Origin: a virus
Lineage: Duplodnaviria; Heunggongvirae; Uroviricota; Caudoviricetes
Direction: 5' to 3' (one strand)
Virus record (IMG/VR): IMGVR_UViG_2548876944_000013
Coordinates: 1 to 23,600 of that record
Length of the DNA: 23,600 nucleotides
Of the stretch, positions 4,224-23,600 are shown one piece after another. The translations under genes and the position numbers were made by a program. The notes under the pieces were generated by a model. That model was not told the origin of the DNA. It searched no databases and was given only the letters and a program-made list of their open reading frames with translations. The number at the start of each line of letters is the position of its first letter. The first letter of the stretch is position 1.

Positions 4224-7200
4224 TTACCCTAATTTAGCTTCAATTGCAGCAAGACGTTCACGAAGAAGTTTATTTTCTTCGCTCATTTCTTGGACCGCTT
4301 TAATTAAAAGCGCGTTCACTGCGGAGTTTGAAATTGTAAAAATTTCTTCTGGGTTATCAAAACCACCAATTTTTGCGGTTTTAACAGCTTCCGGTAATAC
4401 CTCTTGTAAATCCTGTGCGATAATACCAATCTCATGACCTATAACTTCTCGGTCATTAAGAGATTTAACTTTATCGTAGGTTTTAACTTTGAGTTTATTT
4501 ACCTTATCCACCGCATTTTCTTCGTAATCTTCAACATTAATTTTCAGACGACGATCGGAACGAATATAAACATCGTTAAAGTTTCCGTTACCAGTGGCAT
4601 GAAATTCTCCACTTGCATGGAATTGATAATCAGCACCCTGAACATGAAGAACCGCTGCCGCAGTATTATTACTATCACCGGGACAATGAACGTCCATAAC
4701 AGCGATGTAGTTACGCCCCCAATCAACCGCTTTCCAAATAGCATGAGCACTATCAACGCTTTGTTGACAGTCAACCAACAAACCAGCAGGTCGGTCTCTC
4801 CATGCAACATATGCACCACCAGAAACCTCACCACGGATAAGTCCTTGATCTGCGGCATAAGGAACACGCCCTTCCAGTTTAATCATCGCGCCCTGGAAGT
4901 GATGACTAACTGCACCCTCATGATTATTTCGTATATGTAAAATACCATCATCTGTAGCCCAGATAACAGCCTTTTCTGCCTCGCTATCATCTCTAAACCA
5001 GACGTGGCGAGCACCAGCAGAGTTTTTGATAGTAATCCCGGAAGGTCCATGCACAGTAAAAGCGCCAGCAACATCAAACATCAAACTGTTATCTGTCCTG
5101 CGTTCAGCATAGAAGTGATAACCTTTGGAATCGCCGACTTCCATTACTGCCGCGCGACCAACTTCTGAATTTCCCCAATTATTAATAGAGAATCGTTCAG
5201 AGCTATTATTCATCTGATTTAGGTATAATGTACCATCAGTGAATGTTTCGCCAAAGAAACGAGTTTTAACGCCGTTAGTACCCCCCACGCGTTCAAATTC
5301 AGCCAAGAAACCTTTGGAATCTCGCATACTCAAAACGTTATTGCGTCCTGTATTACTGTTACCCCAATGGATTAATTCAATATAGTCCATTGACTGACGA
5401 GACCCTGATCTAAACACCATATTATCTTCGATGCGGGTGCTACCATCAATTCCCAGATGTAAACAGCGTGCGGTAGCTGTGCCACCTAGATCCAATCCAC
5501 CTTCGGCAAAATCATAGCTGAATGGTCTACGGCTATTCCACCCACCGAAAGAATCTTTTAAATCGGTAGTAAGGATATGGAAGCTAGAACCATCATTTCT
5601 AAAAATTAAGCCATAGTTGCCACCTTTAACAGCCAAACGAGCATTTTCAGATAATGCAACTTCGCTATTCATTACAATTTTCTGGCCTTTACCGCCAGTA
5701 ATATGTAATTCACCGTTTTCGATCAAGTTTATAGAGTTTTGACCGTTATCGTTCCACCAAATAAAATCTTTGGTCGTCAAATCACCAAAACCAAACCAAC
5801 CATTACGAACATCTTGACCAGTGCGATAATCCATGAAATTAAAATGGCTTGCTTCGTTTGGTCCTCGACGAATATCAATACCAGCATTAGAACCGGAACC
5901 TAAGCCACCATCGATGGTCAATCTACGAATATGTAACCCGGTTGCAGCCGAAAGCAATAATTGTTGGTTTACATCGTCATATCCAGTAGCAAGACGATAA
6001 TTTTGATCATCAACAGTTTCATGCCAGATAGTGGCAGGAGCAGAACTACGGAAGCGACGCAACATCTTTTTGCTGTTAGTTTGTTGTTCGTTCAAATGCT
6101 CAATGTCATATTGGCCTTGATGGTTTCCAGCAAAGTTTAACGTCCCACGGTTGCTAAAGTTATTGAACGATGAAATGTTAAGAGCATCAAAAATTTCGTC
6201 TGCAACAGGTTTTTCACCACCCAGATATTCAGGAGTATCCAACAGGTTTAAAGAAACACCACCGGAAGAAACTTGATATTCTGCTAAAACAAATCCTGTA
6301 TGTGCACCGTAGTAAGCGTAAAGATCGTAATTGTCGCCATCGGTTGGAATAGCACAAAAATGTTGTTCATAATGCCAAATAGTATAATACGCATTGAATA
6401 CAACACCTTTCGGGCTATTGTTGCCGCATCGAATCACCAATTCGATAATATTGGCTTGTCCATTATGTCCTACGTTATAACCGTTACCACCAACCAAACG
6501 GATCTTAGCCGTGCGACCGTGTTGTTGTGGCATTGTCAAAGTGCCTAGTTTAAACCAACCACCCTCGATACCAAAATTAAGCGTCTTCTGGAACAGTCGG
6601 TCAATTTCTGCTTTCGAATATGCGCCAATTTCAGCCGGAGTAGGTTTATCGCCTTCATGATACATGCGGTGAGAATATGACAAATCACCTAATTCATCAT
6701 AGCCGTATGTTCTTACAGTAGCATGTGGATTAGACCCATAAGTGAACTCGAAGCCACGAGCATGATTAACACCAGATGGATGCGGAACATGCAAGATCAT
6801 TGCAATATGACCCGCCAGGTCATTCATGCGGAATGCACCAAAGTAATCAAGATTACGCGCATTTGGATCATCAAAATAGTTTGCGGTCTTAGACAGCAAA
6901 TAACCATCAGTATAAGTGTTTACGTGTTTTTTGATGTACTTGCCATCAGCAGATCCATCGGCTGCATCAATACGGCTTTCTAAACGTGCCAGTTCAGAAT
7001 CAGTGTAAGACTTGTTATTGTCAACTTTGCTATGAATTGCTGTATTTTTGGCTTCAACATCACGGGTTAATGCTGCGACGTTATCCGCTGCCTCTTGCTT
7101 ATTGGCTGCAATCACACCAGTAAGGTTATTGTAGGTGTCAGTTAACTGATTTTCCGCATAGACTTTATTTGCTGCGATAGTGCGGTCAGTTTCTGCCTTA

Positions 7201-7754
7201 ATCAAATCAACCTTGTCATTGATTGCTTTGTCATTGCTTGCGATGGTTGCATCGGTGCGGGATTTAATATCATCAACTTTTTTATTGATGCGGGTGTCCA
7301 GTTCCTGAGTTGCTACAGCAGCCGCATTTTTATTAGCGTTGATGGTATCCGACAATTCAGCTTTAACACCAGCAAGGTCGGAAGCAGCTTTATTTTTATT
7401 GGCCTCGATTGTCGCGTCGGTTTCGCGTTTAATTACATCAACTTTATTGTTAATTTCTGCGTGATTTGCTGCGATGGTTGCATCAGTAGTTTGTTTAATT
7501 TCATCTACTTTAGCGTGAATATTGCGGTCATTTACTGCAATTGTGCTATCTAGTTCTTGTTTGTTAGCATCAACTTTAGATTCTAGTGCCGCGTGAGTTT
7601 CAGGAGAAACAGAGATTTGAACTACTTCATGATCTCGGTCTTTGGTAAAAATAACATGGTCTTTAAGGTTGATTGCTACCTCACCGACCTGTAATTGTTC
7701 CGGCGTTGGTTTTTTGCCAGAAACATTAGTTCGTTTAAATTGGATTGATTGCAT
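4224..7754 (-). CDS. long fibre protein (1176 aa) with N-terminal coiled-coil repeats and C-terminal self-cleaving intramolecular chaperone domain (peptidase S74-like)
   Basis: N-terminus KRTNVSGKKPTPEQLQVGEVAINLKD is fibre-like. About five repeats of KVDxIKxxTDATIxAN follow. C-terminal ~110 aa begins SDRRLK (Ser codon at 4557-4559) and continues with the GHEIGIIAQDLQEVLPEAV pattern typical of the endosialidase/T5 L-shaped-fibre chaperone domain. SD gaggtg. Confidence 0.8.
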   Translation of the reverse strand: MQSIQFKRTNVSGKKPTPEQLQVGEVAINLKDHVIFTKDRDHEVVQISVSPETHAALESKVDANKQELDSTIAVNDRNIHAKVDEIKQTTDATIAANHAEINNKVDVIKRETDATIEANKNKAASDLAGVKAELSDTINANKNAAAVATQELDTRINKKVDDIKSRTDATIASNDKAINDKVDLIKAETDRTIAANKVYAENQLTDTYNNLTGVIAANKQEAADNVAALTRDVEAKNTAIHSKVDNNKSYTDSELARLESRIDAADGSADGKYIKKHVNTYTDGYLLSKTANYFDDPNARNLDYFGAFRMNDLAGHIAMILHVPHPSGVNHARGFEFTYGSNPHATVRTYGYDELGDLSYSHRMYHEGDKPTPAEIGAYSKAEIDRLFQKTLNFGIEGGWFKLGTLTMPQQHGRTAKIRLVGGNGYNVGHNGQANIIELVIRCGNNSPKGVVFNAYYTIWHYEQHFCAIPTDGDNYDLYAYYGAHTGFVLAEYQVSSGGVSLNLLDTPEYLGGEKPVADEIFDALNISSFNNFSNRGTLNFAGNHQGQYDIEHLNEQQTNSKKMLRRFRSSAPATIWHETVDDQNYRLATGYDDVNQQLLLSAATGLHIRRLTIDGGLGSGSNAGIDIRRGPNEASHFNFMDYRTGQDVRNGWFGFGDLTTKDFIWWNDNGQNSINLIENGELHITGGKGQKIVMNSEVALSENARLAVKGGNYGLIFRNDGSSFHILTTDLKDSFGGWNSRRPFSYDFAEGGLDLGGTATARCLHLGIDGSTRIEDNMVFRSGSRQSMDYIELIHWGNSNTGRNNVLSMRDSKGFLAEFERVGGTNGVKTRFFGETFTDGTLYLNQMNNSSERFSINNWGNSEVGRAAVMEVGDSKGYHFYAERRTDNSLMFDVAGAFTVHGPSGITIKNSAGARHVWFRDDSEAEKAVIWATDDGILHIRNNHEGAVSHHFQGAMIKLEGRVPYAADQGLIRGEVSGGAYVAWRDRPAGLLVDCQQSVDSAHAIWKAVDWGRNYIAVMDVHCPGDSNNTAAAVLHVQGADYQFHASGEFHATGNGNFNDVYIRSDRRLKINVEDYEENAVDKVNKLKVKTYDKVKSLNDREVIGHEIGIIAQDLQEVLPEAVKTAKIGGFDNPEEIFTISNSAVNALLIKAVQEMSEENKLLRERLAAIEAKLG

Positions 7755-8668: not shown

Positions 8669-9070
8669 TTAAAAACGCGCTAGATAAGAAAATTTAAGGC
8701 TAAGTGTCCCAACGATACCCCCATCACTAGAATCATCGTCATAATCGGTATTAGAAGCTACTGGAGTGATATCTGAAATAGAGAAGCCCAAATCTTTAAA
8801 TCGTGGGTTATCTGGCTGAATCTGGATTATCTGGCAAATACCCTCATGAATTTTCGTTTCATGAATCTGAGAATATAACTGCATTTCGATAACGCATTCA
8901 GCTTGCATTGCATTACCACCACGGCCCCTAGTGTAAGTCTCATTCATTCCGGTGATCCAACAAACCACGTCATCACTAAAGCCTTGCTGAGTTTGTTCTA
9001 CGTTTAAAGCCAGACCTAAATCTTGTTCGATAATATCTTGCAAGGCGCGTTTGATTTTCAGTCTAGGCAT
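8669..9070 (-). CDS. putative head-tail joining / tail completion protein (134 aa from the ATG at 9070; ORF track extends to 9139)
   Basis: The ATG at 9070-9068 lies 4 nt after the stop of the upstream gene (coupling). The longer upstream extension overlaps the preceding gene by 65 nt. Assignment is by position after the capsid gene only. Confidence 0.4.
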   Translation of the reverse strand: MPRLKIKRALQDIIEQDLGLALNVEQTQQGFSDDVVCWITGMNETYTRGRGGNAMQAECVIEMQLYSQIHETKIHEGICQIIQIQPDNPRFKDLGFSISDITPVASNTDYDDDSSDGGIVGTLSLKFSYLARF

Positions 9071-13696: not shown

Positions 13697-15604
13697 TTAG
13701 AACGATGTTACCCAGCTACGGCCTCTATTTGGGCGTCTGGCGATGTTTTGACGTTGTGGTCGTGTGATTGGCTTAGTTTCTTCTATTTGCTCGTCAGATT
13801 GCGATTTAGGAGCTTCTACGGATTCTTCGACAACACGGTTTAAGCTGTCTTTCATTGCAATGAGTTTATCCCATGACATTTTTGAAAGAACGTAGCGAGA
13901 AGCAGCATAGCTATAAACCAGACAGTCGAGAGCCTCGTTTCGGGTACTACCTGGATTTTTCACCCAACGCACGCCAGTAGTAGTACGCTTGATGGATTCA
14001 CTCAAAAGCTGATCGAGATAATCATCAGGAACGGTTTCTGATATTTCTAAGCCAATATGAGGATTATCTTTCAGGTTTCTAACCAGCATTTCACGAACAG
14101 CGGATTTACCAACGTTAACACCCAGCATAAGCAATTCATGACCACCTGTGCGGGTAGGTTTAACCGGAATCACTGGAGCATTACCAGATGAACTACCTTT
14201 GATAGCGTGTAGGTTCTTCCACTTGCCGCAAATACGGTATCCGGCTTGAGTGAATCGACCGTTCGATGTATCAAGGAAGCTGGCGAGCATTGGTACACGT
14301 TCACCATTAACGTTATAGAATTTGGTTTTCTTGAAGTTAACCAGGCGATCCCAAACAGGTGATTCATATCGTTCACAGTTATGATCGTAAAAGCTGCGGT
14401 GATCCAGAATGTAAACCTTATCTTTCGCTACACCTAAGATGGTAGATTCTGCGCGGTCCAATTGCTGGTCAATTCCTGAACACAAGAAAATCACGTCATC
14501 AGGGATATTCTCGATAGAAACATCTGTTTTGAGTTGTTCCAGTTCATTTGCTTCTACTGCCGTGTCCTGATCGTCGTATACCTTGCCTAACACGGTGTTA
14601 AAAAAGGATTGTAAATCAAAGGATTGCCACGCATGACTAAAATCAACCACACAAGCGCGGATACTACTGAAAGGTGAATACAGACGGCTGATCCAGAATC
14701 CTGCTACTTCACTTTCACGGGTTGCTCTCCACTCGCCTTGCGCTACTGCCCTAATTCGTTCCCCTTCTGTCCATGCGTTCTTACAGTGGGGGCAAATATA
14801 ACGAGCGGTATCAGGATCGGGTAAGTTCTTACCATCGATGTTACGCCATTCAAATTGAACGTTTTCCCACTCGATCACCTGGTGTTCCCCGCAATGAGGA
14901 CACGGAACAAAAAACATACGCATATCGCTTGATAACCATTGCTGGTTAATGCTTCCGAGCTTACTGGTCGGGGTACTGGATACGACTAATCGGCCTTCAT
15001 CGCCAAAGGTAGTTAAACGGTTAGCAGCCAGTGCCACCGGATCACCTTCTTCTGAGGCTGTAGCAGCATCGATTTCGTCAAGCAATCCAACCTTTGCGGT
15101 CTTACCACGTAGGGTCGATGGACTGGTTAGCGATACCATGTAAAGGAAGTGATTCGTTTTTAGCTGTAGCTGGTTATTGTTGTTAACCGCATTGCGATCA
15201 TTCTTGTCTGTAACCACGTCTTTTAATGCATCACATGCTTCGATAGACGGTCGGATCTTACCAGCGAGATATTGAGACATTTCTTTAGCGGTTGATTGTC
15301 CGATAATCATATTGCATGGATCGTTAGCCATCTGGTTAAACAGGATACCGTTCAGGATGGTAGTCTTTCCGATCTGCGCACTGGTCATCAGAACATACTT
15401 TTTCTTGTTCTCAAGGAAAGGAGCATCAATCATGCCTTTCTGGAATGACAGCAATTTAACTTTATCCCCAGCTTGAGGACCATCTACCAGCACCATATTA
15501 GCTTCGCACCATTCAGAAGGAAGGAGCTTAGGCGGTGGCGTAATATATTTGGCTGCATTTTTGAGAATCTTTTTTAATTTGGCCTTATTAGAAATTAGTT
15601 TCAT
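13697..15604 (-). CDS. terminase large subunit (GpA family, 635 aa)
   Basis: Walker A-like [11 protein letters not shown] near the N-terminus. CPHCGE...CPHCKN double-cysteine motif mid-protein. Length and domain order match lambda-gpA-type terminases. SD gaggg. Confidence 0.8.
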
Positions 15605-15691: not shown

Positions 15692-16294
15692 ATGCTAATT
15701 AATCAGCAAGAAAGAGATGAATTAGAATTAGCCTTGTCTTGTACCGATCATGAATATCGTTTGCCAGTTAAGCACCATCACAAGAAGACTGATTACACAA
15801 CATCCGGCTTTAGTCGCGAGGAAGCGAAACAGATTTTAATCGAGTTGTATCGCGATCATGGGTATACCGATATTCATAACTTCTTTAAGAAGCATCGCAC
15901 ATCACAGACAGAGTTTCAGCGAGTCCGTGAATGGTTTGATTTTGATATCAAGCGTTATTATCGAGTGGATGACGGTCCAATCTATCGGTTGCAGTGGAAG
16001 CCGATCAGGGAAGTGCTTAAACAGAAGAGATTGAATCATGCCATTACACGCTATCGTAACGTGGCTTTCAAGAAAGGCTATGGTGATTCAAGGGAATTGT
16101 TTGTAGAACTCGCTAACGTGCGATATAGCCACTATTACAGGAATCCTAAAGAGTTCTTCGAAGTGCTGCGCAAGGTTGATATTAGTCGGGGTACATATTA
16201 TTCACGGTTGAAGAAGTACGGGATTAAGGCAGAGTTCTTTATGTCGGTTGACGATGGAGAACTTTTTCCGATAAAATGTAAGTCCTCTAAATAA
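15692..16294 (+). CDS. hypothetical basic protein (200 aa) with C-terminal helix-turn-helix-like segment; member of a 3-protein paralog family
   Basis: Strong SD aaggaggg. C-terminus [20 protein letters not shown] resembles the C-termini of the 85-aa and 64-aa proteins. Transcribed divergently from the terminase gene. Confidence 0.45.
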
Positions 16295-16323
16295 AGGTGA
16301 ACATTCACTTTAATTTGGAGAAA

Positions 16324-16554
16324 ATGACTATGACTACTAAAGCTACTCGCGGTCGCCCTGCCCGTTTTAATCGTGAACAACTGGCAGCGATTGTAAAAGC
16401 ATACTATCAAGCACCGAAAGGTAAAGAGAACAAAGAACGGGTATTAAATGAGCATGGCTTATCTATAGCCCAGCTATACAAATCCCTACATAAAGTTGAT
16501 TTGAAATTCTTTGTTCAGGTTGACGGTGAAATGGTAGAAGCAACAGGAATTTGA
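16324..16554 (+). CDS. small DNA-binding protein (about 76 aa from the ATG at 16324; ORF track begins at GTG 16297)
   Basis: N-terminus TRGRPARFNREQLAAIVKAYY is a GRP-x-KF/HTH-type motif common in small phage DNA-binding and terminase-small-subunit N-domains. Followed by a strong terminator. Confidence 0.5.
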   Translation: MTMTTKATRGRPARFNREQLAAIVKAYYQAPKGKENKERVLNEHGLSIAQLYKSLHKVDLKFFVQVDGEMVEATGI

Positions 16555-17543: not shown

Positions 17544-17798
17544 TTATTTGTTGTTAGCACACAATCCGCGTAAAGCCATTTGCAAAGGTGATGGTTTCGG
17601 TGCTTTGGATTCGTCTTTATATTCCACATCCACGGTTTCGGTAGCCCAACCAAAGCCCTTAACATAACGACGACGGCGGGTTTCGATCACCCCTGGTTCA
17701 CGTTCACGGAACATCTTCATTAACTTGTCATTGTGGAAGCTATCAGCATCAAAACCTAACAGGATGAAAGGAGTAGTGGTAGTCATTTTATGGTTCAT
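17544..17798 (-). CDS. hypothetical protein (84 aa)
   Basis: SD gagga 9 nt upstream of the ATG. Lies upstream of the Rha-family gene on the same strand. No motif recognised. Confidence 0.4.
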   Translation of the reverse strand: MNHKMTTTTPFILLGFDADSFHNDKLMKMFREREPGVIETRRRRYVKGFGWATETVDVEYKDESKAPKPSPLQMALRGLCANNK

Positions 17799-17997
17799 AG
17801 TGGAAATCCTCTAAAAGAAAGTGAATCAATCTAATATTATTTATAAAGAGAAAATTCTTGTTATTATGAAAGGTGATTGTATTCAGTCGGGCATAGCCCT
17901 CCTTCATAGTTTTGATTAAATCATCATCAAAACGAAGAAGTATCTTTAGAATATAAGAATCTTTCTTTTGGAGAAATAATAATCAGGAAGCAATTTA

Positions 17998-18026
17998 GCA
18001 ACCGAAGGTTGCAATCCCGAAGGGAT
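17998..18026. other. two adjacent short hairpins with GAA/UUC loops
   Basis: gcaacc-gaa-ggttgc followed directly by atccc-gaa-gggat. Confidence 0.4.
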
Positions 18027-18123
18027 ACCAATACCTTTCTAGAAAGTGATTGTTACTCACTTCGTTCGTTTACTAGAATCAGTTAGTAACTAGTATTAAA
18101 TCCCTTTCTAAGAAAATCCTTTC

Positions 18124-18258
18124 AAAAGCGAGTGAACGCCGTAGGCGTGAACGTGAGCGAAGCGAACTATCCAATCCCTTTCGAATCCTGCTTGCAGGTC
18201 TTAGAAGGTGTTGATGGGCGCTTCGCGCACGGCTACGCCGTATTCTTTTTGCGAGATC
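18124..18258. repeat. large imperfect inverted repeat with internal 5-bp-stem mini-palindromes
   Basis: Left arm carries acgcc-gta-ggcgt and gtgagcgaagcg. Right arm carries cgcttcgcgcac and acggc-tac-gccgt. The centre holds cctgcttgcagg. Region is GC-richer than its surroundings. Confidence 0.45.
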
Positions 18259-18372
18259 TTTCTTGAACGTAGTGAGAGAAAACGAGCAAAAAGGAGAACG
18301 TTAGTTCGAATTTTATATTCTATGGTCTGTGGGGCTAAATATCCTTCAAGATCATACACTTATGAGATTGAA

Positions 18373-18491
18373 GTGTAGGGTTAGTGTAGGTGTGTAGGTT
18401 TCATAGTGTAGGTTTGAGGGTGTTATAGTGTAGGTTTACTGGCTAGTGTAGTGTAGGCCAATCCCTTTAAAGTGTAGGTTTGTAGTGTAGG
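18373..18491 (+). repeat. iteron-like array: eight direct copies of GTGTAGG (extended (T/A)AGTGTAGG(T/G)TT)
   Basis: Copies start at 18373, 18384, 18392, 18406, 18428, 18451, 18472 and 18485, all in the same orientation, in a non-coding region. Confidence 0.7.
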
Positions 18492-18599
18492 GTTTTCATC
18501 AAAAATTTTGATAGAAAATTCTTGTATATTATTTAATCATAAAATCACCAAAAATCTCGGTAACCGCATGATTTAAAAGGAATGATCAAAAGGTCGCCG

Positions 18600-18608
18600 T
18601 GCTATAAT
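18600..18608 (+). promoter_or_regulatory. candidate extended -10 promoter (TGcTATAAT)
   Basis: Perfect TATAAT at 18603-18608 preceded by TG at 18600-18601. No good -35. Confidence 0.35.
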
Positions 18609-18688
18609 AGGTTATAAAGGTTGATAATCGTTATCCGCCATTTTCACACAAAAATTTTGATAGTCATTTCTCGCTTAGATCAAGTGTA

Positions 18689-18717
18689 TTGACAACTGTC
18701 AAGGATTATTTTATACT
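18689..18717 (+). promoter_or_regulatory. sigma70-type promoter with operator-like palindrome over the -35
   Basis: TTGACA (18689-18694), 17-bp spacer, TATACT (18712-18717). The -35 sits inside the palindrome ttgacaactgtcaa. Confidence 0.55.
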
Positions 18718-19059
18718 TTTTCTCGTTGGTAGGGGTTGAAATTTTCGAAACAATCCCCATATTGATGATAAGCAAGATTTTTTCGTGTATAAATACATGC
18801 ATGAAATGATTGTTCACTTCTGAAAATCCCCTGATTCACTGTTAACACATACAGCACTGGTTAAACATACAGTACTTTTTCGATTGAATAATGTACGAAT
18901 TGATTAATTATTAATCTTATCTTTAGCAATTCGTGCTCCCACTGATCGGATATACAGTGGTTTTACAGGGTTTTCTGAAAATCATTTTATAAATAGAAGT
19001 ATCGAGGGCGAAAAGCTCTTTTTATTGTCCTTATTAATCCACATTTGAGGAATCTACTT

Positions 19060-19239
19060 ATGGCTAGACCTGTTAAGTTTACTCGTGAAATGATTGTTGA
19101 TATTGCTAAACGCTTTTATGGCGATACTGAACGAGGCGGCGAGAATTTCTTTAAGAAGGAAGGAATTGATAGAAGCGGATTCTATAAGCTAATGAAGAAA
19201 TACGAAATTCAGATAAAGATTAACGTTCAAGTTTGTTAA
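19060..19239 (+). CDS. small HTH DNA-binding protein (59 aa from the ATG at 19060), paralog of the 85-aa protein
   Basis: MARPVKFTREMIVDIAKRFY...GIDRSGFYKLMKKYEI. SD gagg 9 nt upstream. The ORF track starts at an upstream TTG. Confidence 0.5.
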   Translation: MARPVKFTREMIVDIAKRFYGDTERGGENFFKKEGIDRSGFYKLMKKYEIQIKINVQVC

Positions 19240-19282
19240 TCCACTTTCACTGAGAATTATATGATGGCTTTAAAAATAAAAA

Positions 19283-19313
19283 AGCCTCCCTGTTGGCGCA
19301 AGGAGGCTTTTAG
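19283..19313 (+). terminator. hairpin terminator/attenuator between the HTH gene and the acidic-protein gene
   Basis: agcctcc...ggaggct, a 7-bp stem with a 12-nt loop, then uuuu. Confidence 0.4.
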
Positions 19314-19358: not shown

Positions 19359-20354
19359 ATGAAAAATTCTAAGCGCATCACCTTCAACCTGTTTATTAAA
19401 TCCAACGGCAAACTGAACATTACCGTCATGGAAGGTAAAGCAAGCAAACAAGACAAATCCTTTGAAGTAGTATCCGGTAAGACTCTGACCGAAATGCGTC
19501 AGAATGCTGGCATCAAAGACGGTGCTGAATGGCAGATCACTAACCGTTTCGACAAACGTCACGTTAAACCTACACTGGTAGAAGGTGAATCCGTTTATTG
19601 CTTCGCTCGTGCTGTTAAAGCTGATGAAACTTACTATCTGGCTGTTGTTAAAACTGCTTCCGGCTTCCGTGCTGTAATGCATCACAAGAGCAAACGTAAC
19701 GAATACGGCGTAGAGACCCAGGAAGTCGCAAAACGCTTCCGTACTGTTGCTACCGAATCCACTGTAAAGGATGTTTCTGGTACTGTTAACACCGCTAAAG
19801 GCGGTTCCTTCTACAACCACGCATTACAGGTTACTTCCTCCTTCTTCTGCAAAAAAGAAGCACAGAAAGAAGTTTCTCCGGTAGTAGTTGAAGAAGTTAA
19901 AGAAGAAGTTGCAGTGGTTGAATCTTCCGAAGTTGAAGCACTGAAAGCACGCATTGCTGAACTGGAAGCTGAAAACGCATCTCTGAAAGCTGAACTGGCA
20001 GCACAGGAAACCACTTTCGAAGTAGCAGCGGTTGAAGTTGAAGCAGTTGAAGAAAAATCCATTGATGAAGAACTGGAAGAACTCCTTAACTATCGCTGGG
20101 GTGTTGTTGCAGAAGTAGAACAAGAAGTTGCTCCGGTAGTTGTTCCGGTTGAAGTTGAAAAAGAATCCGCACCTGTTACTAACTTTGAATCCCTGCGCAA
20201 TAACTTTATGGCTAAATTCAAAACCACTTGGGAAGATACCGAAGAAGAACAAGAAGAGATTGAAGTAAACGAAGACGAGATCCGCGAAGCACAGATGGCA
20301 CTGCATGACGCTATCTACGACACCAACTACAGCGCCTACGCATACGCAGCTTAA
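19359..20354 (+). CDS. highly acidic protein (331 aa) with strongly optimised codon usage; function unknown
   Basis: SD caggag 9 nt upstream. Codon choice (CGT, CTG, GGT, GCT, TCC, ACC, GAA, AAA) matches that of the capsid and tail tube genes. The C-terminal half is Glu/Val/Ala-rich with a coiled-coil segment EVEALKARIAELEAENASLKAELAAQE. Confidence 0.6.
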   Translation: MKNSKRITFNLFIKSNGKLNITVMEGKASKQDKSFEVVSGKTLTEMRQNAGIKDGAEWQITNRFDKRHVKPTLVEGESVYCFARAVKADETYYLAVVKTASGFRAVMHHKSKRNEYGVETQEVAKRFRTVATESTVKDVSGTVNTAKGGSFYNHALQVTSSFFCKKEAQKEVSPVVVEEVKEEVAVVESSEVEALKARIAELEAENASLKAELAAQETTFEVAAVEVEAVEEKSIDEELEELLNYRWGVVAEVEQEVAPVVVPVEVEKESAPVTNFESLRNNFMAKFKTTWEDTEEEQEEIEVNEDEIREAQMALHDAIYDTNYSAYAYAA

Positions 20355-20369
20355 TAGAGGGGTGAATCT

Positions 20370-20612
20370 ATGATGAATCAAAACAAAGAATTTCTGGGTA
20401 ATCTGATGTTAGAAATTACCAAAATGAAAGAAAGAATGGTAGCGATGGAATCAGAGATTAAAACACTTAAAGCTGATAATAAGGCGTTGAGAAAGTCCTT
20501 AAAGCTGATTGATGAGACTAATGCGGTTATGATGGATCATGTATTCCCTGAGTGGCGAAATGAAACTAAACCTACACAACATAAGAAACTTACACTTCGA
20601 ATTGTTGCATAA
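20370..20612 (+). CDS. small coiled-coil protein (80 aa), likely co-transcribed with the 331-aa gene
   Basis: Start 15 nt after the upstream stop with SD agagggg. Heptad-like MKERMVAMESEIKTLKADNKALRKSLKLI. Confidence 0.5.
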   Translation: MMNQNKEFLGNLMLEITKMKERMVAMESEIKTLKADNKALRKSLKLIDETNAVMMDHVFPEWRNETKPTQHKKLTLRIVA

Positions 20613-20635: not shown

Positions 20636-20720
20636 TAGTAAGTTTAGGTTAGGTTTGCACAACAAAGATGAGGTTATAATGAACATAATGCTACATTATT
20701 CTTTAAAGCCAGAAAAATAA

Positions 20721-21324: not shown

Positions 21325-21879
21325 TTAAGACACATCAAATTCATCGTCTTCTTCTGGTTCTTGTTCCGGTTCATCGATTAATGCTAATTCTTCTTCCTCG
21401 TCTTCTCCCAAATCCGCATTTTCGAACAAGTCCCCTACTTCATTTAAACGACGCTCGATGATCTCCCTTAGCTTATTCTTCAATGTTTTCTGATCAGTGG
21501 CAGATTCGAGAATTTCTAAAGCGTCGATTGTGGCGATCTGCAAAATAGTCTGTTTCACCTTTCCGCAATATTCCGCTAGTTCCTGTTCTACATACCCGAC
21601 AGGAATCAGGAGATTCATTTTTTCCTGGTTCTCTCGTTCGGCTGCATCTGCCAAAGCACGCTCACGGCGTAATTTCTCTACATCGATTTGTTCTTTGATA
21701 GAAGTTTGTTTAAGCGGGTTGATAATATTTTTCAAGACCCATTCTGTTCCTTCTTTGGCTGGCACGCGGCGGGTATTGGTGTTAAATGGCAATCCCCTTT
21801 CTAACCATCGCTTACCGCCACCATTCAATGTATAACCATATAAACGGGAAATTTCTGTAAGGGTTAATTCTTCTTTCAT
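21325..21879 (-). CDS. Nu1-like DNA-binding protein, candidate terminase small subunit (184 aa)
   Basis: N-terminal winged-HTH-like LTLTEISRLYGYTLNGGGKRWLERGLPF and EKLRRERALADAAERENQEK resemble lambda Nu1 as I recall it. Acidic C-terminal tail. It is 5.7 kb away from the large terminase gene. Confidence 0.45.
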   Translation of the reverse strand: MKEELTLTEISRLYGYTLNGGGKRWLERGLPFNTNTRRVPAKEGTEWVLKNIINPLKQTSIKEQIDVEKLRRERALADAAERENQEKMNLLIPVGYVEQELAEYCGKVKQTILQIATIDALEILESATDQKTLKNKLREIIERRLNEVGDLFENADLGEDEEEELALIDEPEQEPEEDDEFDVS

Positions 21880-22003
21880 TGGTTATCCTCCATTAAATTT
21901 GCGTAATTTTATTTATTGGTTTTACGCACAATCTAAGCGCCTAAATCGCATTCTAACGAAGGGAAAGATCCAGTAATGGTAAGGGCTAGGAAGTGGGTTA
22001 ATA

Positions 22004-22039
22004 GTCGCGTAGCGACCGCGCCATAAGTGAAGTGATCAC
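22004..22039. other. candidate cos/packaging-site palindromes upstream of the Nu1-like gene
   Basis: gtcgc-gta-gcgac (22004-22016) followed by cgcgcc and gtgatcac. Inverted ttgcgtaa/ttacgcac elements lie between it and the gene start. Confidence 0.25.
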
Positions 22040-22237
22040 GTTTTAGAATCCCGCCCGCGTATCAAATACCGGGGTGCCGAAAACTCCCTTTATTTCATCC
22101 GTGGAACAGTACCTTTTTAATTTGTCAAGCATTAATTTCTTAATTTAATTACTAAATCTCATCCCAATAATTGAAAAAATATCAAAAATCAATAAAGTAA
22201 GCATCTAAAAGTCAGTCCATACCAAAAGAGGTATAAA

Positions 22238-23017
22238 ATGAAAAACATTATCGCTGCTATCGTGCTTTCTGCTACTGCTTTCGGTGCTGATGCTGCGTCC
22301 TTTGATTGCACTAAGGCTACTACCAAAGCAGAGAAGTTTATTTGTGCTAATGAGTCAATCTCCGCACTGGATTCTAAACTTCATGAAGTATATGTTAAGG
22401 CTGTTAAGATTGATCCGTCTCTTAAACAAGAGCAACGCAACTGGAATAAAACTGTTCGTGATACAATGATCAATATCGGGCAGATTCAGCCACTGGAGGC
22501 TGTATACAACGCTCAAATCCAAAACTTGATGAATGTATTATCTAAAGAAGAAACCGCGTCAGAGAGCGATTCAGAGACTTCTGCGAAGATTGAAGAAGAA
22601 CAACCGAAACAGGAAGAAGTAAAGAAACTGAATGTTACCGCGATTTACGCATGTACTACAAAATTTACATGGAAAGTTATCGATGGTGAGGAAACAGAAG
22701 CTGTAAAAGATAAACTCTACGGAAACAAAACTTTTGATAATAACGGCGGTAAACTTAAGATCAAAATGGTAGACGATGTTCCTGTATCTTTTGTGTATTC
22801 CGACAAGTATGATGTTTATAAATCAAGTCTCAAGCCATCTAAAGAGAATCCAAACGCAATGGAAGGTAAATCCAAACAGGATGCTATTGGACGTGTTAAC
22901 ACTTATAACATCTGGGTAAGCAAAAAAGGTGACATGCGTCTTGAAGTAATTGAACCAAAATTTGATTCTGAATATAAACACACTCAATTTGCATGTGACA
23001 TGGTAGACGCAGAGTAA
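22238..23017 (+). CDS. secreted protein with N-terminal DUF1311 (LprI-type lysozyme-inhibitor-like) domain and uncharacterised C-terminal domain (259 aa)
   Basis: Signal peptide MKNIIAAIVLSATAFGADA. SFDCTKATTKAEKFICANESISALDSKLHEVY...QRNW matches the DUF1311 cysteine pattern. SD agagg. Codon usage is the 'high-expression' type. Confidence 0.55.
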   Translation: MKNIIAAIVLSATAFGADAASFDCTKATTKAEKFICANESISALDSKLHEVYVKAVKIDPSLKQEQRNWNKTVRDTMINIGQIQPLEAVYNAQIQNLMNVLSKEETASESDSETSAKIEEEQPKQEEVKKLNVTAIYACTTKFTWKVIDGEETEAVKDKLYGNKTFDNNGGKLKIKMVDDVPVSFVYSDKYDVYKSSLKPSKENPNAMEGKSKQDAIGRVNTYNIWVSKKGDMRLEVIEPKFDSEYKHTQFACDMVDAE

Positions 23018-23249: not shown

Positions 23250-23579
23250 TTATTTTGGGTTGACTACATTCGGGTTGCCAATTCGCCTGGCTAACTCTTG
23301 CTGAGTGATTTCTGACTGTAAAAAAGCATTTAACAGCAATACTTTAGAGGCGACGCTCAAAGGTACTTCAATAAAGTGATCATGACTATTTAATGGCGAA
23401 GGTAACGGGATAAGCTCGTTATCTTCAAAATAAAAATCAAATGCGGTCAGTAAAGCATCTTTTGCCGCTTCCATCGCTTCAGCGACAGTTTCGCCCTGCG
23501 TCAACGCTTCAGGGATATCCACAAAAGAAACCATATAACCGCCTTCCGGCGCGGGTGTAAGAGTGACGGGATAACGCAT
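23250..23579 (-). pseudogene. hicB: hicB (HicB antitoxin) 5' portion, 3'-truncated; novel C-terminus NPNVVNPK then stop
   Basis: MRYPVTLTPAPEGGYMVSFVDIPEALTQGETVAEAMEAAKDALLTAFDFYFEDNELIPLPSPLNSHDHFIEVPLSVASKVLLLNAFLQSEITQQELARRIG matches E. coli HicB as I recall it. The expected continuation through the DNA-binding helices is replaced by 8 unrelated codons. Confidence 0.6.
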
Positions 23580-23600
23580 AATTTCGACTGTCTCTCGCAT

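Follow-up and report, generated by a model that had tools for sequence, protein, structure and literature searches.

A non-coding hub whose repeat array co-varies with p331

The DNA analysed here (the window, 23,600 nt) covers positions 1 to 23,600 of the IMG/VR virus record IMGVR_UViG_2548876944_000013, a member of the Caudoviricetes, and forms the right-hand 23 kb of a ~35.8-kb E. coli prophage. A 99.7%-identical copy of this prophage is inserted in hicB of E. coli PK8568. From its far end the prophage carries a large serine recombinase gene followed by lysis, tail, head and portal genes. We focused on a 1.26-kb stretch in the early region (the hub, 17799-19059), which separates a leftward from a rightward operon, and on p331, a 331-aa protein encoded in the rightward operon. 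No repressor or replication protein is annotated in the prophage or detectable there with hidden Markov models, and the switch and replication functions must therefore sit among the few orphan early genes around the hub. The early genes and the flanking terminase genes are arranged as follows.

13697-15604 (-), gpA-type TerL
15692-16294 (+), p200
16297-16554 (+), p85
between p85 and p84 (-), Rha
17544-17798 (-), p84
17799-19059, the hub
19060-19239 (+), p59, a small helix-turn-helix (HTH)-like protein and the first gene of the rightward operon
19359-20354 (+), p331, an orphan protein (ORFan) and candidate iteron-binding initiator
20370-20612 (+), p80, a coiled-coil protein, with an inverted GTGTAGG at 20571 inside the gene
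21325-21879 (-), Nu1-like TerS (phrog_57, E = 1.6e-10)

A preliminary description of the window, made from the letters alone, had singled out the hub as its longest stretch free of open reading frames (ORFs). This holds in the sense that the hub contains only unconserved ORFs of 44-56 aa. The small leader ORFs are interrupted by stops and frameshifts in relatives, and RefSeq annotates no gene at the hub position in most of them. A 69-aa hypothetical protein (WP_024189125.1) that RefSeq places on the type-B repeat array (L007 3324-3533; L010 2871-3080) is probably an artefact of the repeats.

Hubs from six related E. coli prophages were aligned initially, and later those of 26 distinct sequences. 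The alignments divide it into three zones: a conserved left edge (17799 to ~18040), a centre (~18040-18495) that is swapped wholesale in some relatives, and a right half (18496-19030) that is nearly invariant. The right half is more conserved than the flanking proteins, p59 alleles for example being just 46-54% identical. The type-specific module contains no strong promoter, and every strong promoter lies in type-independent DNA. The hub is thus a composite: its swappable module of hairpins and iterons is flanked by a conserved leftward promoter region on one side and by a near-invariant rightward promoter and leader on the other.

The iteron array fills the right end of the swappable centre.

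18371-18493 (+), iteron array, eight full copies and one partial copy of (TA)GTGTAGG(TT) in a single orientation, G-rich on the + strand

Eight same-orientation copies of GTGTAGG had been described, and all of them lie within 18373-18491, starting on the + strand at 18373, 18384, 18392, 18406, 18428, 18451, 18472 and 18485. The extended repeat consensus is TAGTGTAGGTT. In the whole window GTGTAGG occurs 12 times against 1.19 expected, a count reached in none of 100 shuffles. Five versions of the array occupy the same position in 30 related loci, built from GTGTAGG, GTGCAGG, CAGGGGCAA, CGGGGA or TGGAATCTTGGGGATTT. Other prophages carry ~9 copies of CAGGGGCAA, ~12-20 of CGGGGA and 5 of TGGAATCTTGGGGATTT, and in all repeat types the copies share one orientation and are G-rich on the + strand. 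The type-C hub has in addition a second repeat family, TGTAGGTATATTGGT, in three copies. Spacings in the window are 11, 8, 14, 22, 23, 21 and 13 bp. When the five repeat types were pooled, 23 of 31 spacings fell within 1 bp of about 11, 21.5, 32 or 42 bp (p = 4e-6), and the spacings cluster across types at about 11, 21-23, 31-33 and 41-43 bp. The roughly helical spacing proposed earlier is thus real at the level of the family and only partial in the window itself.

Every early protein was searched with tblastn against the relatives, and all loci were then classified. The 30 loci comprise 15 annotated E. coli loci, 13 testable loci out of 15 fetched from IMG/VR, and 2 divergent relatives. Each repeat type pairs, without exception, with its own p331 N-terminal domain (30/30 loci). 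The change with repeat type is confined to the first ~170 residues of p331, which occur as four mutually unalignable sequences, one per type. The two divergent relatives follow the same rule on a finer scale: one with a 67%-identical p331 keeps TAGTGTAGG, and one with a 45%-identical p331 has TTAGTGCAGGG, a one-base change of the core from GTGTAGG to GTGCAGG.

The other proteins of the region behaved differently. The p59 allele WP_021515494.1 occurs with both type A and type B iterons, which indicates that p59 does not set iteron specificity. The p155 allele WP_000611125.1 is found with types B and C, and the Rha allele WP_024233627.1 with types A and C. Between types A and B, TerS retains 96-98% identity and hence does not co-vary. 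The small HTH proteins (64, 85 and 200 aa) or the Rha-family protein had been put forward as the dedicated binders of the array; this proposal failed, because their alleles assort independently of repeat type. From the pairing we strongly infer that the dedicated protein of the array is p331, the ORFan encoded downstream, and that its N-terminal domain recognises and binds the repeats.

The ~870 bp between the array and the p331 gene are a mosaic. In this interval the closest between-type pair differs by 4.8%, and the largest within-type difference is 13.8%. A between-type distance below a within-type distance indicates that recombination does occur between the array and the p331 gene. Despite this recombination, no discordant pair of array and p331 was seen in the 30 loci. 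The co-variation is evidence of matched specificity, which falls short of binding or initiation.

The p331 protein consists of a beta-rich N-terminal domain, a central acidic coiled coil and a swappable C-terminal module (the last ~70-90 residues). It has no Pfam, PHROGs or Protein Data Bank (PDB) homologue and no tblastn match in phage or plasmid collections. An exhaustive search of 1.84 billion cluster representatives returned five matches only, all from the same prophage family, and two word-index searches for distant homologues returned near-identical E. coli copies en masse. An AlphaFold 2 model built from a 5-row alignment was moderately confident for the beta-rich N-terminal domain (residues 31-110, predicted local distance difference test scores of 70-89); it placed a long helix in the very acidic central region and predicted the C-terminus poorly. 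Fold searches with this model were uninformative, giving weak matches to PUR, NTF2 and cystatin-like folds.

Most p331 C-terminal variants end in Ala-Ala. A gene of the p80 family comes after p331 in every case; it encodes 74-333 aa depending on type and always ends in (T)LR(L/I)VA. Both the Ala-Ala of p331 and the LR(L/I)VA of p80 presumably resemble ssrA-type degradation tags, judged against ClpX recognition motifs. With such ssrA-like tails, p331 and p80 are probably short-lived. In types C, D and A' (L013 4891-5892; L014 4856-5716; L033 7035-7445) the gene after p331 is larger; by eye, its product starts with a beta-rich segment like that of p331 and continues with a coiled coil and the shared TLRLVA tail.

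Copies or near copies of GTGTAGG in inverted orientation also lie inside the p331 and p80 genes (19569-19575, 20571-20577 and 20587-20597, - strand). An echo of the repeats had been noted downstream of the hub. It exists (20640-20655, +) and is degenerate; the inverted copies at 19569 and 20571 are better matches and stay in place across all the E. coli type-A loci examined. They could serve as secondary binding sites, or their conservation could simply reflect the coding sequence around them. In loci L032 and L033, extra repeat copies, inverted or adjacent, flank or sit just downstream of the rightward promoter P2 (below), an arrangement that looks like initiator autoregulation.

Promoters, LexA boxes and mini-hairpins around the array

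The conserved right half of the hub contains the following elements.

18496-18560, AT-rich stretch abutting the iterons (~29% GC), with the perfect palindrome ATCAAAAATTTTGAT at 18498-18512
18600-18608 (+), P1, an extended -10 element (TGcTATAAT)
18647-18663, second copy of the AAAAATTTTGATAG element, a half-palindrome
18689-18717 (+), P2, TTGACA-17-TATACT (11/12 consensus score)
18837-18874, LexA boxes 1 and 2, CACTGTTAACACATACAGCA and CACTGGTTAAACATACAGTA, in tandem 18 bp apart (16.8 and 21.2 bits)
18893-18936 (+), hairpin with a 10-bp stem (GTACGAATTG/CAATTCGTGC) and a palindromic loop (GATTAATTATTAATC)
18940-18959, LexA box 3, CACTGATCGGATATACAGTG (13.9 bits)
19004-19027 (+), terminator-like hairpin with a T-run, just upstream of p59

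The AT-rich stretch is conserved in all E. coli repeat types and is a candidate DNA-unwinding element, operator, or both. The 14-bp direct repeats AAAAATTTTGATAG described earlier are present at 18501 and 18650, and so are the two promoters, one of them with its -35 element in a palindrome. P1 is conserved in the E. coli relatives and less so in L032 and L033. The -35 element of P2 lies inside the palindrome TTGAC-N4-GTCAA (18689-18702), whose arms are invariant and whose spacer varies, L033 included. The candidate binders of this palindrome and of ATCAAAAATTTTGAT are p200, p85 and p59, which are paralogues (33-35% identity) with a small HTH-like domain and which gave no Pfam, PHROGs or PDB match.

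Downstream of P2, the elements earlier taken for tandem hairpins are by sequence LexA (SOS) boxes. They are CTG-N10-CAG palindromes and constitute the top three LexA matrix matches in the 23.6-kb window. Their scores of 21.2, 16.8 and 13.9 bits fall inside the range (12.8-24.3 bits) of the 24 known E. coli SOS boxes from which the matrix was built. Apart from L033, the most divergent relative, every locus retains the CTG and CAG arms, with spacers that differ. A consensus scan found no promoter of 9/12 or better overlapping the boxes; by eye, on both strands, only weak candidates lie nearby. The hairpin between boxes 2 and 3 contains the motif (C/A)TCTTTAGCAATT (18919-18931), which is duplicated in L033 and which may resemble the rrn boxA. 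The terminator-like hairpin at 19004-19027 is conserved, with a G-U/A-U change in its stem. As a test of RNA covariation the right half is too conserved to inform, offering one compensatory pair. P1 and P2 are two strong sigma-70 promoters directed at the p59-p331-p80 operon, and P2 is separated from p59 by the three LexA boxes and the terminator-like hairpin. The operon is therefore expected to be off in the lysogen and induced by the SOS response. If LexA binds, the position of p331 in an SOS-induced early operon argues against p331 being a lysogenic repressor.

The left edge and the centre upstream of the array hold a leftward promoter and a cluster of hairpins.

17836-17864 (-), candidate leftward promoter of the p84(p155)-Rha operon, ATAACA-17-AATAAT (9/12 consensus score)
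17889-17899, stem-loop GGGC-ATA-GCCC
17906-17986 (+), 81-bp segment 78-79% identical to intergenic DNA of RB49-like T4 phages
17998-18026 (+), two adjacent cGAAg mini-hairpins, GCAACC-GAA-GGTTGC and ATCCC-GAA-GGGAT, with CCGAAGG in each
18133-18251, long imperfect inverted repeat with arms 18144-18164 and 18219-18239 (81% complementary)
18229-18250, terminator-like site inside the inverted repeat, ACGGC-TAC-GCCGT (18229-18241) plus a T-run

The leftward promoter lies ~40 nt upstream of the p84 start and is conserved in all repeat types. In types B and D, the hairpin cluster has the stem-loop motif AGTCGGGC-NNN-GCCCTCCT again at its right end. Within the 81-bp segment a stem-loop (TTTTGAT...ATCAAAA) is followed by a TAGAAT -10-like box.

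The large imperfect inverted repeat of mini-palindromes was rightly recognised in the preliminary description. It is assembled from ACGCC-GTA-GGCGT, GCGAAGC, a central hairpin CCTGC-TT-GCAGG (18187-18198) and GCGC-TTC-GCGC, and 18133-18241 folds as a long imperfect hairpin built from triloop mini-palindromes. Compared with shuffled sequences, the region 17975-18300 folds with z = -4.2 as DNA on either strand and z = -5.1 as RNA. Perfect triloop hairpins of the form cGNAg with a stem of at least 4 bp occur seven times in the 23.6 kb, five of them within 17998-18241. Their GNA loops are on the + strand on the left (17998, 18014 and 18136) and on the - strand on the right (18218 and 18229). CCGAAGG itself lies at 18002-18008 and 18017-18023, and GCGAAGC at 18157-18163.

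This arrangement persists while the sequence changes. At the position of the first mini-hairpin there are four unrelated stems among the relatives, with the hairpin kept; type B shows the same strand pattern of cGNAg hairpins with wholly different stems; and types C and D have fewer cGNAg hairpins, with GC-rich palindromes still present. The central stem shows a compensatory change in L033. A 2026 review describes DNA mini-hairpins at the complementary-strand origins of phages G4, St-1 and alpha3 and at the N4 early promoters, and notes that ssiA of RSF1010 carries a CCGAAGG mini-hairpin (PMC13037366). Between them, the G4 origin and RSF1010 ssiA have reported motifs of both kinds seen in the hub, GCGAAGC and CCGAAGG. 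By sequence, the hub mini-hairpins belong to the cGNAg class reported at these phage and plasmid priming sites. They also show traits of the single-strand initiation (ssi) type, namely the cGNAg class itself and its placement on opposite strands in an inverted arrangement.

Replication origin or regulatory switch

What is observed directly is the anatomy of the hub, how well it is conserved, and the strict pairing of each repeat type with one p331 N-terminal domain. On this basis we propose that the hub joins an early switch under SOS control to an origin of the iteron type, for which p331 would be a novel initiator, a reading whose chances we put at roughly even. Its components, DNA binding by p331, control by LexA and origin function, are deductions from sequence comparison, and the last is plausible but unproven, with the balance again near the middle. 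The earlier suggestion of an origin or master regulatory region bound by a dedicated protein thus stands as to the protein, for which p331 has matched specificity, and as to the dense regulatory content of the right half; its origin part is a matter of inference.

Under the proposed mechanism, the p59-p331-p80 operon would stay silent in the lysogen until the SOS response turned it on. The p331 made after induction would bind the phased iterons through its N-terminal domain, oligomerise through its coiled coil and open the adjacent AT-rich DNA, aided by transcription from P1 and P2. Host replication proteins would then be recruited, with the mini-hairpins serving as strand-specific priming or structural signals, and p331 and p80 would probably be removed soon afterwards through their ssrA-like tails. 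Three features favour an origin over an operator: the type-specific repeats lie in a module without a strong promoter while the promoters are type-independent; many phased direct repeats stand beside an AT-rich stretch and strand-specific hairpins; and p331 appears to be induced and unstable.

Several points weigh against this proposal. The p331 protein has no homology to any known initiator, whether of the Rep, O or helicase type, and genes for a helicase, loader or primase are unrecognisable anywhere in the prophage. The hub has no DnaA box (TTWTNCACA), integration host factor (IHF) site (WATCAANNNNTTR) or 13-mer motif; three degenerate Fis-like matches are its sole host-factor motif matches. 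DnaA and IHF sites are not universal among origins. The interval 18450-18599 exceeds its surroundings only slightly in AT content (29% GC; neighbouring hub windows, 31-40%). The LexA boxes do not overlie a promoter; they are found 113-235 nt past the P2 start. The idea of an invariant C-terminal Ala-Ala in p331 is weakened by one type-B variant that ends NFSYCQ. Part of the association between array and p331 could reflect physical linkage, and the hairpin cluster could equally be a structured RNA.

The array and p331 might instead form a type-specific transcriptional or immunity switch that acts on the divergent early promoters or excludes related phages, the repeat types then being different immunity or regulatory specificities. 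Joint swapping of a protein specificity and its sites is classic for immunity regions, the hub sits between divergent operons, and no other repressor is recognisable in the prophage; the extra repeat copies at P2 in L032 and L033 and the inverted copies inside the p331 and p80 genes would also find a role. We nevertheless consider such a switch possible but rather unlikely. In the E. coli members, 85 bp or more separate the type-specific repeats from the closest promoter element, and the promoters do not vary with repeat type. An array of six to about twenty phased direct repeats would be unusual for operators. The position of p331 behind three LexA boxes fits an induced lytic function, not a lysogenic repressor, and the ssrA-like tails fit transient early proteins. 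In a lambda-type immunity region the type-specific operators would overlap the early promoters, which is not the arrangement in the E. coli members (L032 and L033 being a partial exception).

Two further explanations concern parts of the hub. The stretch ~17960-18250 could be a structured non-coding RNA gene, running from a promoter like that of the promoter early stem-loop (PeSL) cassettes to the ACGGC-TAC-GCCGT plus T-run terminator, with the mini-hairpins as RNA features. Such a gene would be compatible with the iterons and p331 acting as proposed above. It would account for the RNA fold score (z = -5.1), the terminator-like site at 18229-18250, the TAGAAT box upstream in the RB49-like segment, and the replacement of stems with retention of hairpins, including one compensatory change. 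We rate it as distinctly improbable, because Rfam 15 gave no match for the window at the gathering threshold and only chance-level hits (E of at least 0.37) for 17700-19300 under relaxed settings, the upstream promoter is weak with a poor -35, and the T-run is lost in L033. The cGNAg loops occur on either strand, with one strand flip in L033, and both strands fold nearly equally well as DNA, which is a better fit to DNA hairpins. A packaging (cos/pac) or partition-type site, with p331 as its DNA-recognition subunit (small terminase or centromere-binding protein), would suit the layout of p331, since many of those proteins likewise join a DNA-binding N-terminal domain to a coiled coil and a C-terminal module, and it would suit the unusual distance between terS and terL with the hub between them. 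This explanation is highly improbable given that a separate Nu1-like TerS exists and does not co-vary with repeat type, that 2.3 kb and three genes separate the hub from terS, that no partition ATPase is present, and that the elements are integrated prophages whose hub and p331 have no plasmid match. A site bound by TerS itself was rejected on the same lack of co-variation.

A bolder form of the initiator proposal is that p331 founds a new class of sequence-specific replication initiators with an unseen DNA-binding fold, in an initiator-only replicon that lacks helicase, loader and primase genes of its own. This we regard as unlikely. As parts of it, the N-terminal domain may read the G-rich repeats as single-stranded or R-loop-prone DNA, an idea suggested by the G-richness of every repeat type on the + strand and by the weak PUR, NTF2 and cystatin-like fold matches; the cGNAg mini-hairpins may be entry sites for the host primase; and LexA cleavage may fire the module, with the ssrA-like tails of p331 and p80 resetting it.

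Among known systems, the lambda origin and its O protein offer a close parallel. There, a phage initiator uses its N-terminal domain to bind phased iterons, as is predicted for p331; in lambdoid modules the N-terminal domain and the iterons are swapped jointly and the remainder of the protein is common; and an AT-rich region lies beside the iterons, with early rightward transcription nearby. Lambda O is a ClpXP substrate and proteolytically unstable, a likeness to p331 if the instability predicted from its ssrA-like tail is real. The lambda iterons, however, are inside the O gene, whereas those of the hub are ~870 bp upstream of p331 in non-coding DNA, and the iteron cores of the hub family are short (7-11 bp) and more numerous (5 to about 20). 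Furthermore, p331 is not similar to O, the prophage lacks a recognisable P-like loader, and its control is apparently through LexA boxes rather than a CI-type repressor.

The plasmid RSF1010 (IncQ) resembles the hub in its oriV, which has direct repeats beside an AT-rich stretch and a large inverted repeat with one hairpin per strand (ssiA and ssiB). The CCGAAGG heptamer of ssiA (PMC13037366) occurs twice in the hub. The order and spacing of the parts differ, and RSF1010 encodes its own primase, helicase and initiator (RepB', RepA and RepC), for which no genes are recognisable in the prophage. Iteron plasmids (P1 RepA with oriR/incA, F RepE, R6K pi and pPS10) share with the hub direct repeats phased at ~11 or 22 bp, with L032 and L033 the extra inverted or partial repeats near the initiator's own promoter, and with the window the secondary repeat clusters at a distance (19569 and 20571). 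In contrast to those plasmids, the hub system has no winged-helix Rep domain, DnaA boxes or plasmid relatives, and its repeats are shorter.

Ubeda and colleagues reportedly described, in 2007, replication origins with an island-specific Rep in Staphylococcus aureus pathogenicity islands (SaPIs) and phage-inducible chromosomal islands (PICIs). In these elements, many short (6-8 bp) iterons in non-coding DNA flank an AT-rich region, origin and initiator specificities are matched and element-specific, and LexA controls part of the element, traits that the hub shares or is proposed to share. The SaPI Rep can be recognised as a helicase-type initiator and has a primase partner; p331 is an ORFan without an ATPase motif. 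A SaPI is a satellite, and the element here is a complete phage.

Prophage induction under LexA control is known from the tum gene of coliphage 186, the Gifsy and Fels antirepressors, CTXphi and GIL01. Like these, the hub has canonical CTG-N10-CAG boxes, in the early control region of a temperate phage without an obvious self-cleaving CI repressor. The hub differs in that its boxes lie past the promoter start, in a long leader, and in that the operon encodes an iteron-binding candidate and not a recognisable antirepressor, the Rha/Ant-like gene being in the leftward operon. Finally, the 81-bp piece, with its stem-loop and promoter-like box, resembles the PeSL cassettes of RB49-like T4 phages (PMC2839356, PMC4122927), as does the GGGC...GCCC stem-loop at 17889-17899 (PMC2839356). 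It differs from them in the poor -35 of its promoter and in belonging to a temperate element with a lambda-type terminase.

Iteron/initiator modules are known as a kind; what would be new here is one with an orphan initiator family in an uncharacterised prophage lineage. The co-variation pins down one DNA-protein pair with five natural specificity variants, a swap set for a new DNA-binding domain. If the array is an origin, its initiator family would be dissimilar to all known ones, and one orphan protein, helped by host factors, would suffice for a phage to replicate. If LexA control is real, this would be one more prophage under the direct control of the host SOS repressor. The suggestion that DNA mini-hairpins act at initiation sites can be examined in a natural setting with the cGNAg cluster.

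Distribution of the prophage family and further features

The hub region is present in 58 of 5426 complete E. coli genomes (about 1%), in every case on the chromosome. It has no match among 72,556 plasmid records, and among 50,697 phage records a single 81-bp piece, the RB49-like segment, matches and nothing more. A TerL search of GTDB representative genomes found no relatives. Pfam, PHROGs and PDB searches with p331, p59, p200, p80, p84/p155 and with the second ORFs in types C and D identified only Rha, TerL, TerS and LprI. One member of this unexplained family carries an mcr-1 colistin-resistance transposon: in E. coli PE15 (NZ_CP041628.1; L012 5203-6562), ISApl1 and mcr-1.1 lie directly downstream of a p331 gene of type B, in the prophage early region. 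Attachment sites vary within the family. The window and PK8568 copies are in hicB, and at least two relatives adjoin ycdX or a PHP-domain gene (L009 6382-6563; L032 9874-10332; compare window 23250-23600).

At the left border of the hub, p84 shares only its first 38 residues with a 150-155-aa protein encoded at that position in relatives. The window misses ~490 bp here, comprising the remainder of the 150-155-aa gene and a gene of 48 or 110 aa. Homology of p84 to RB49 ORF130 was considered and rejected: the two are equal in length and p84 adjoins the 81-bp shared DNA, yet they are not homologous. RB49-like T4 phages share about 15% of the window at 81-92% identity, although the window comes from a temperate phage with a lambda-type terminase. 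These pieces (window 4224-7754, 22238-22618 and others) include a distal tail-fibre segment, an LprI-family gene and small hypothetical genes.

The LprI-family gene accompanies the Nu1-like TerS beyond the early region. The distance between terS and terL is 5.7 kb, with the early genes between them. A 358-bp gap upstream of terS (within 21325-22237) is a candidate location for cos, and GTCGC-GTA-GCGAC, one of the two cGNAg hairpins outside the hub, lies in this gap at 22004. ARAGORN reported a 91-nt tRNA-Glu(ttc) at 8814-8904 (+), inside a region under a - strand ORF, which may be spurious.

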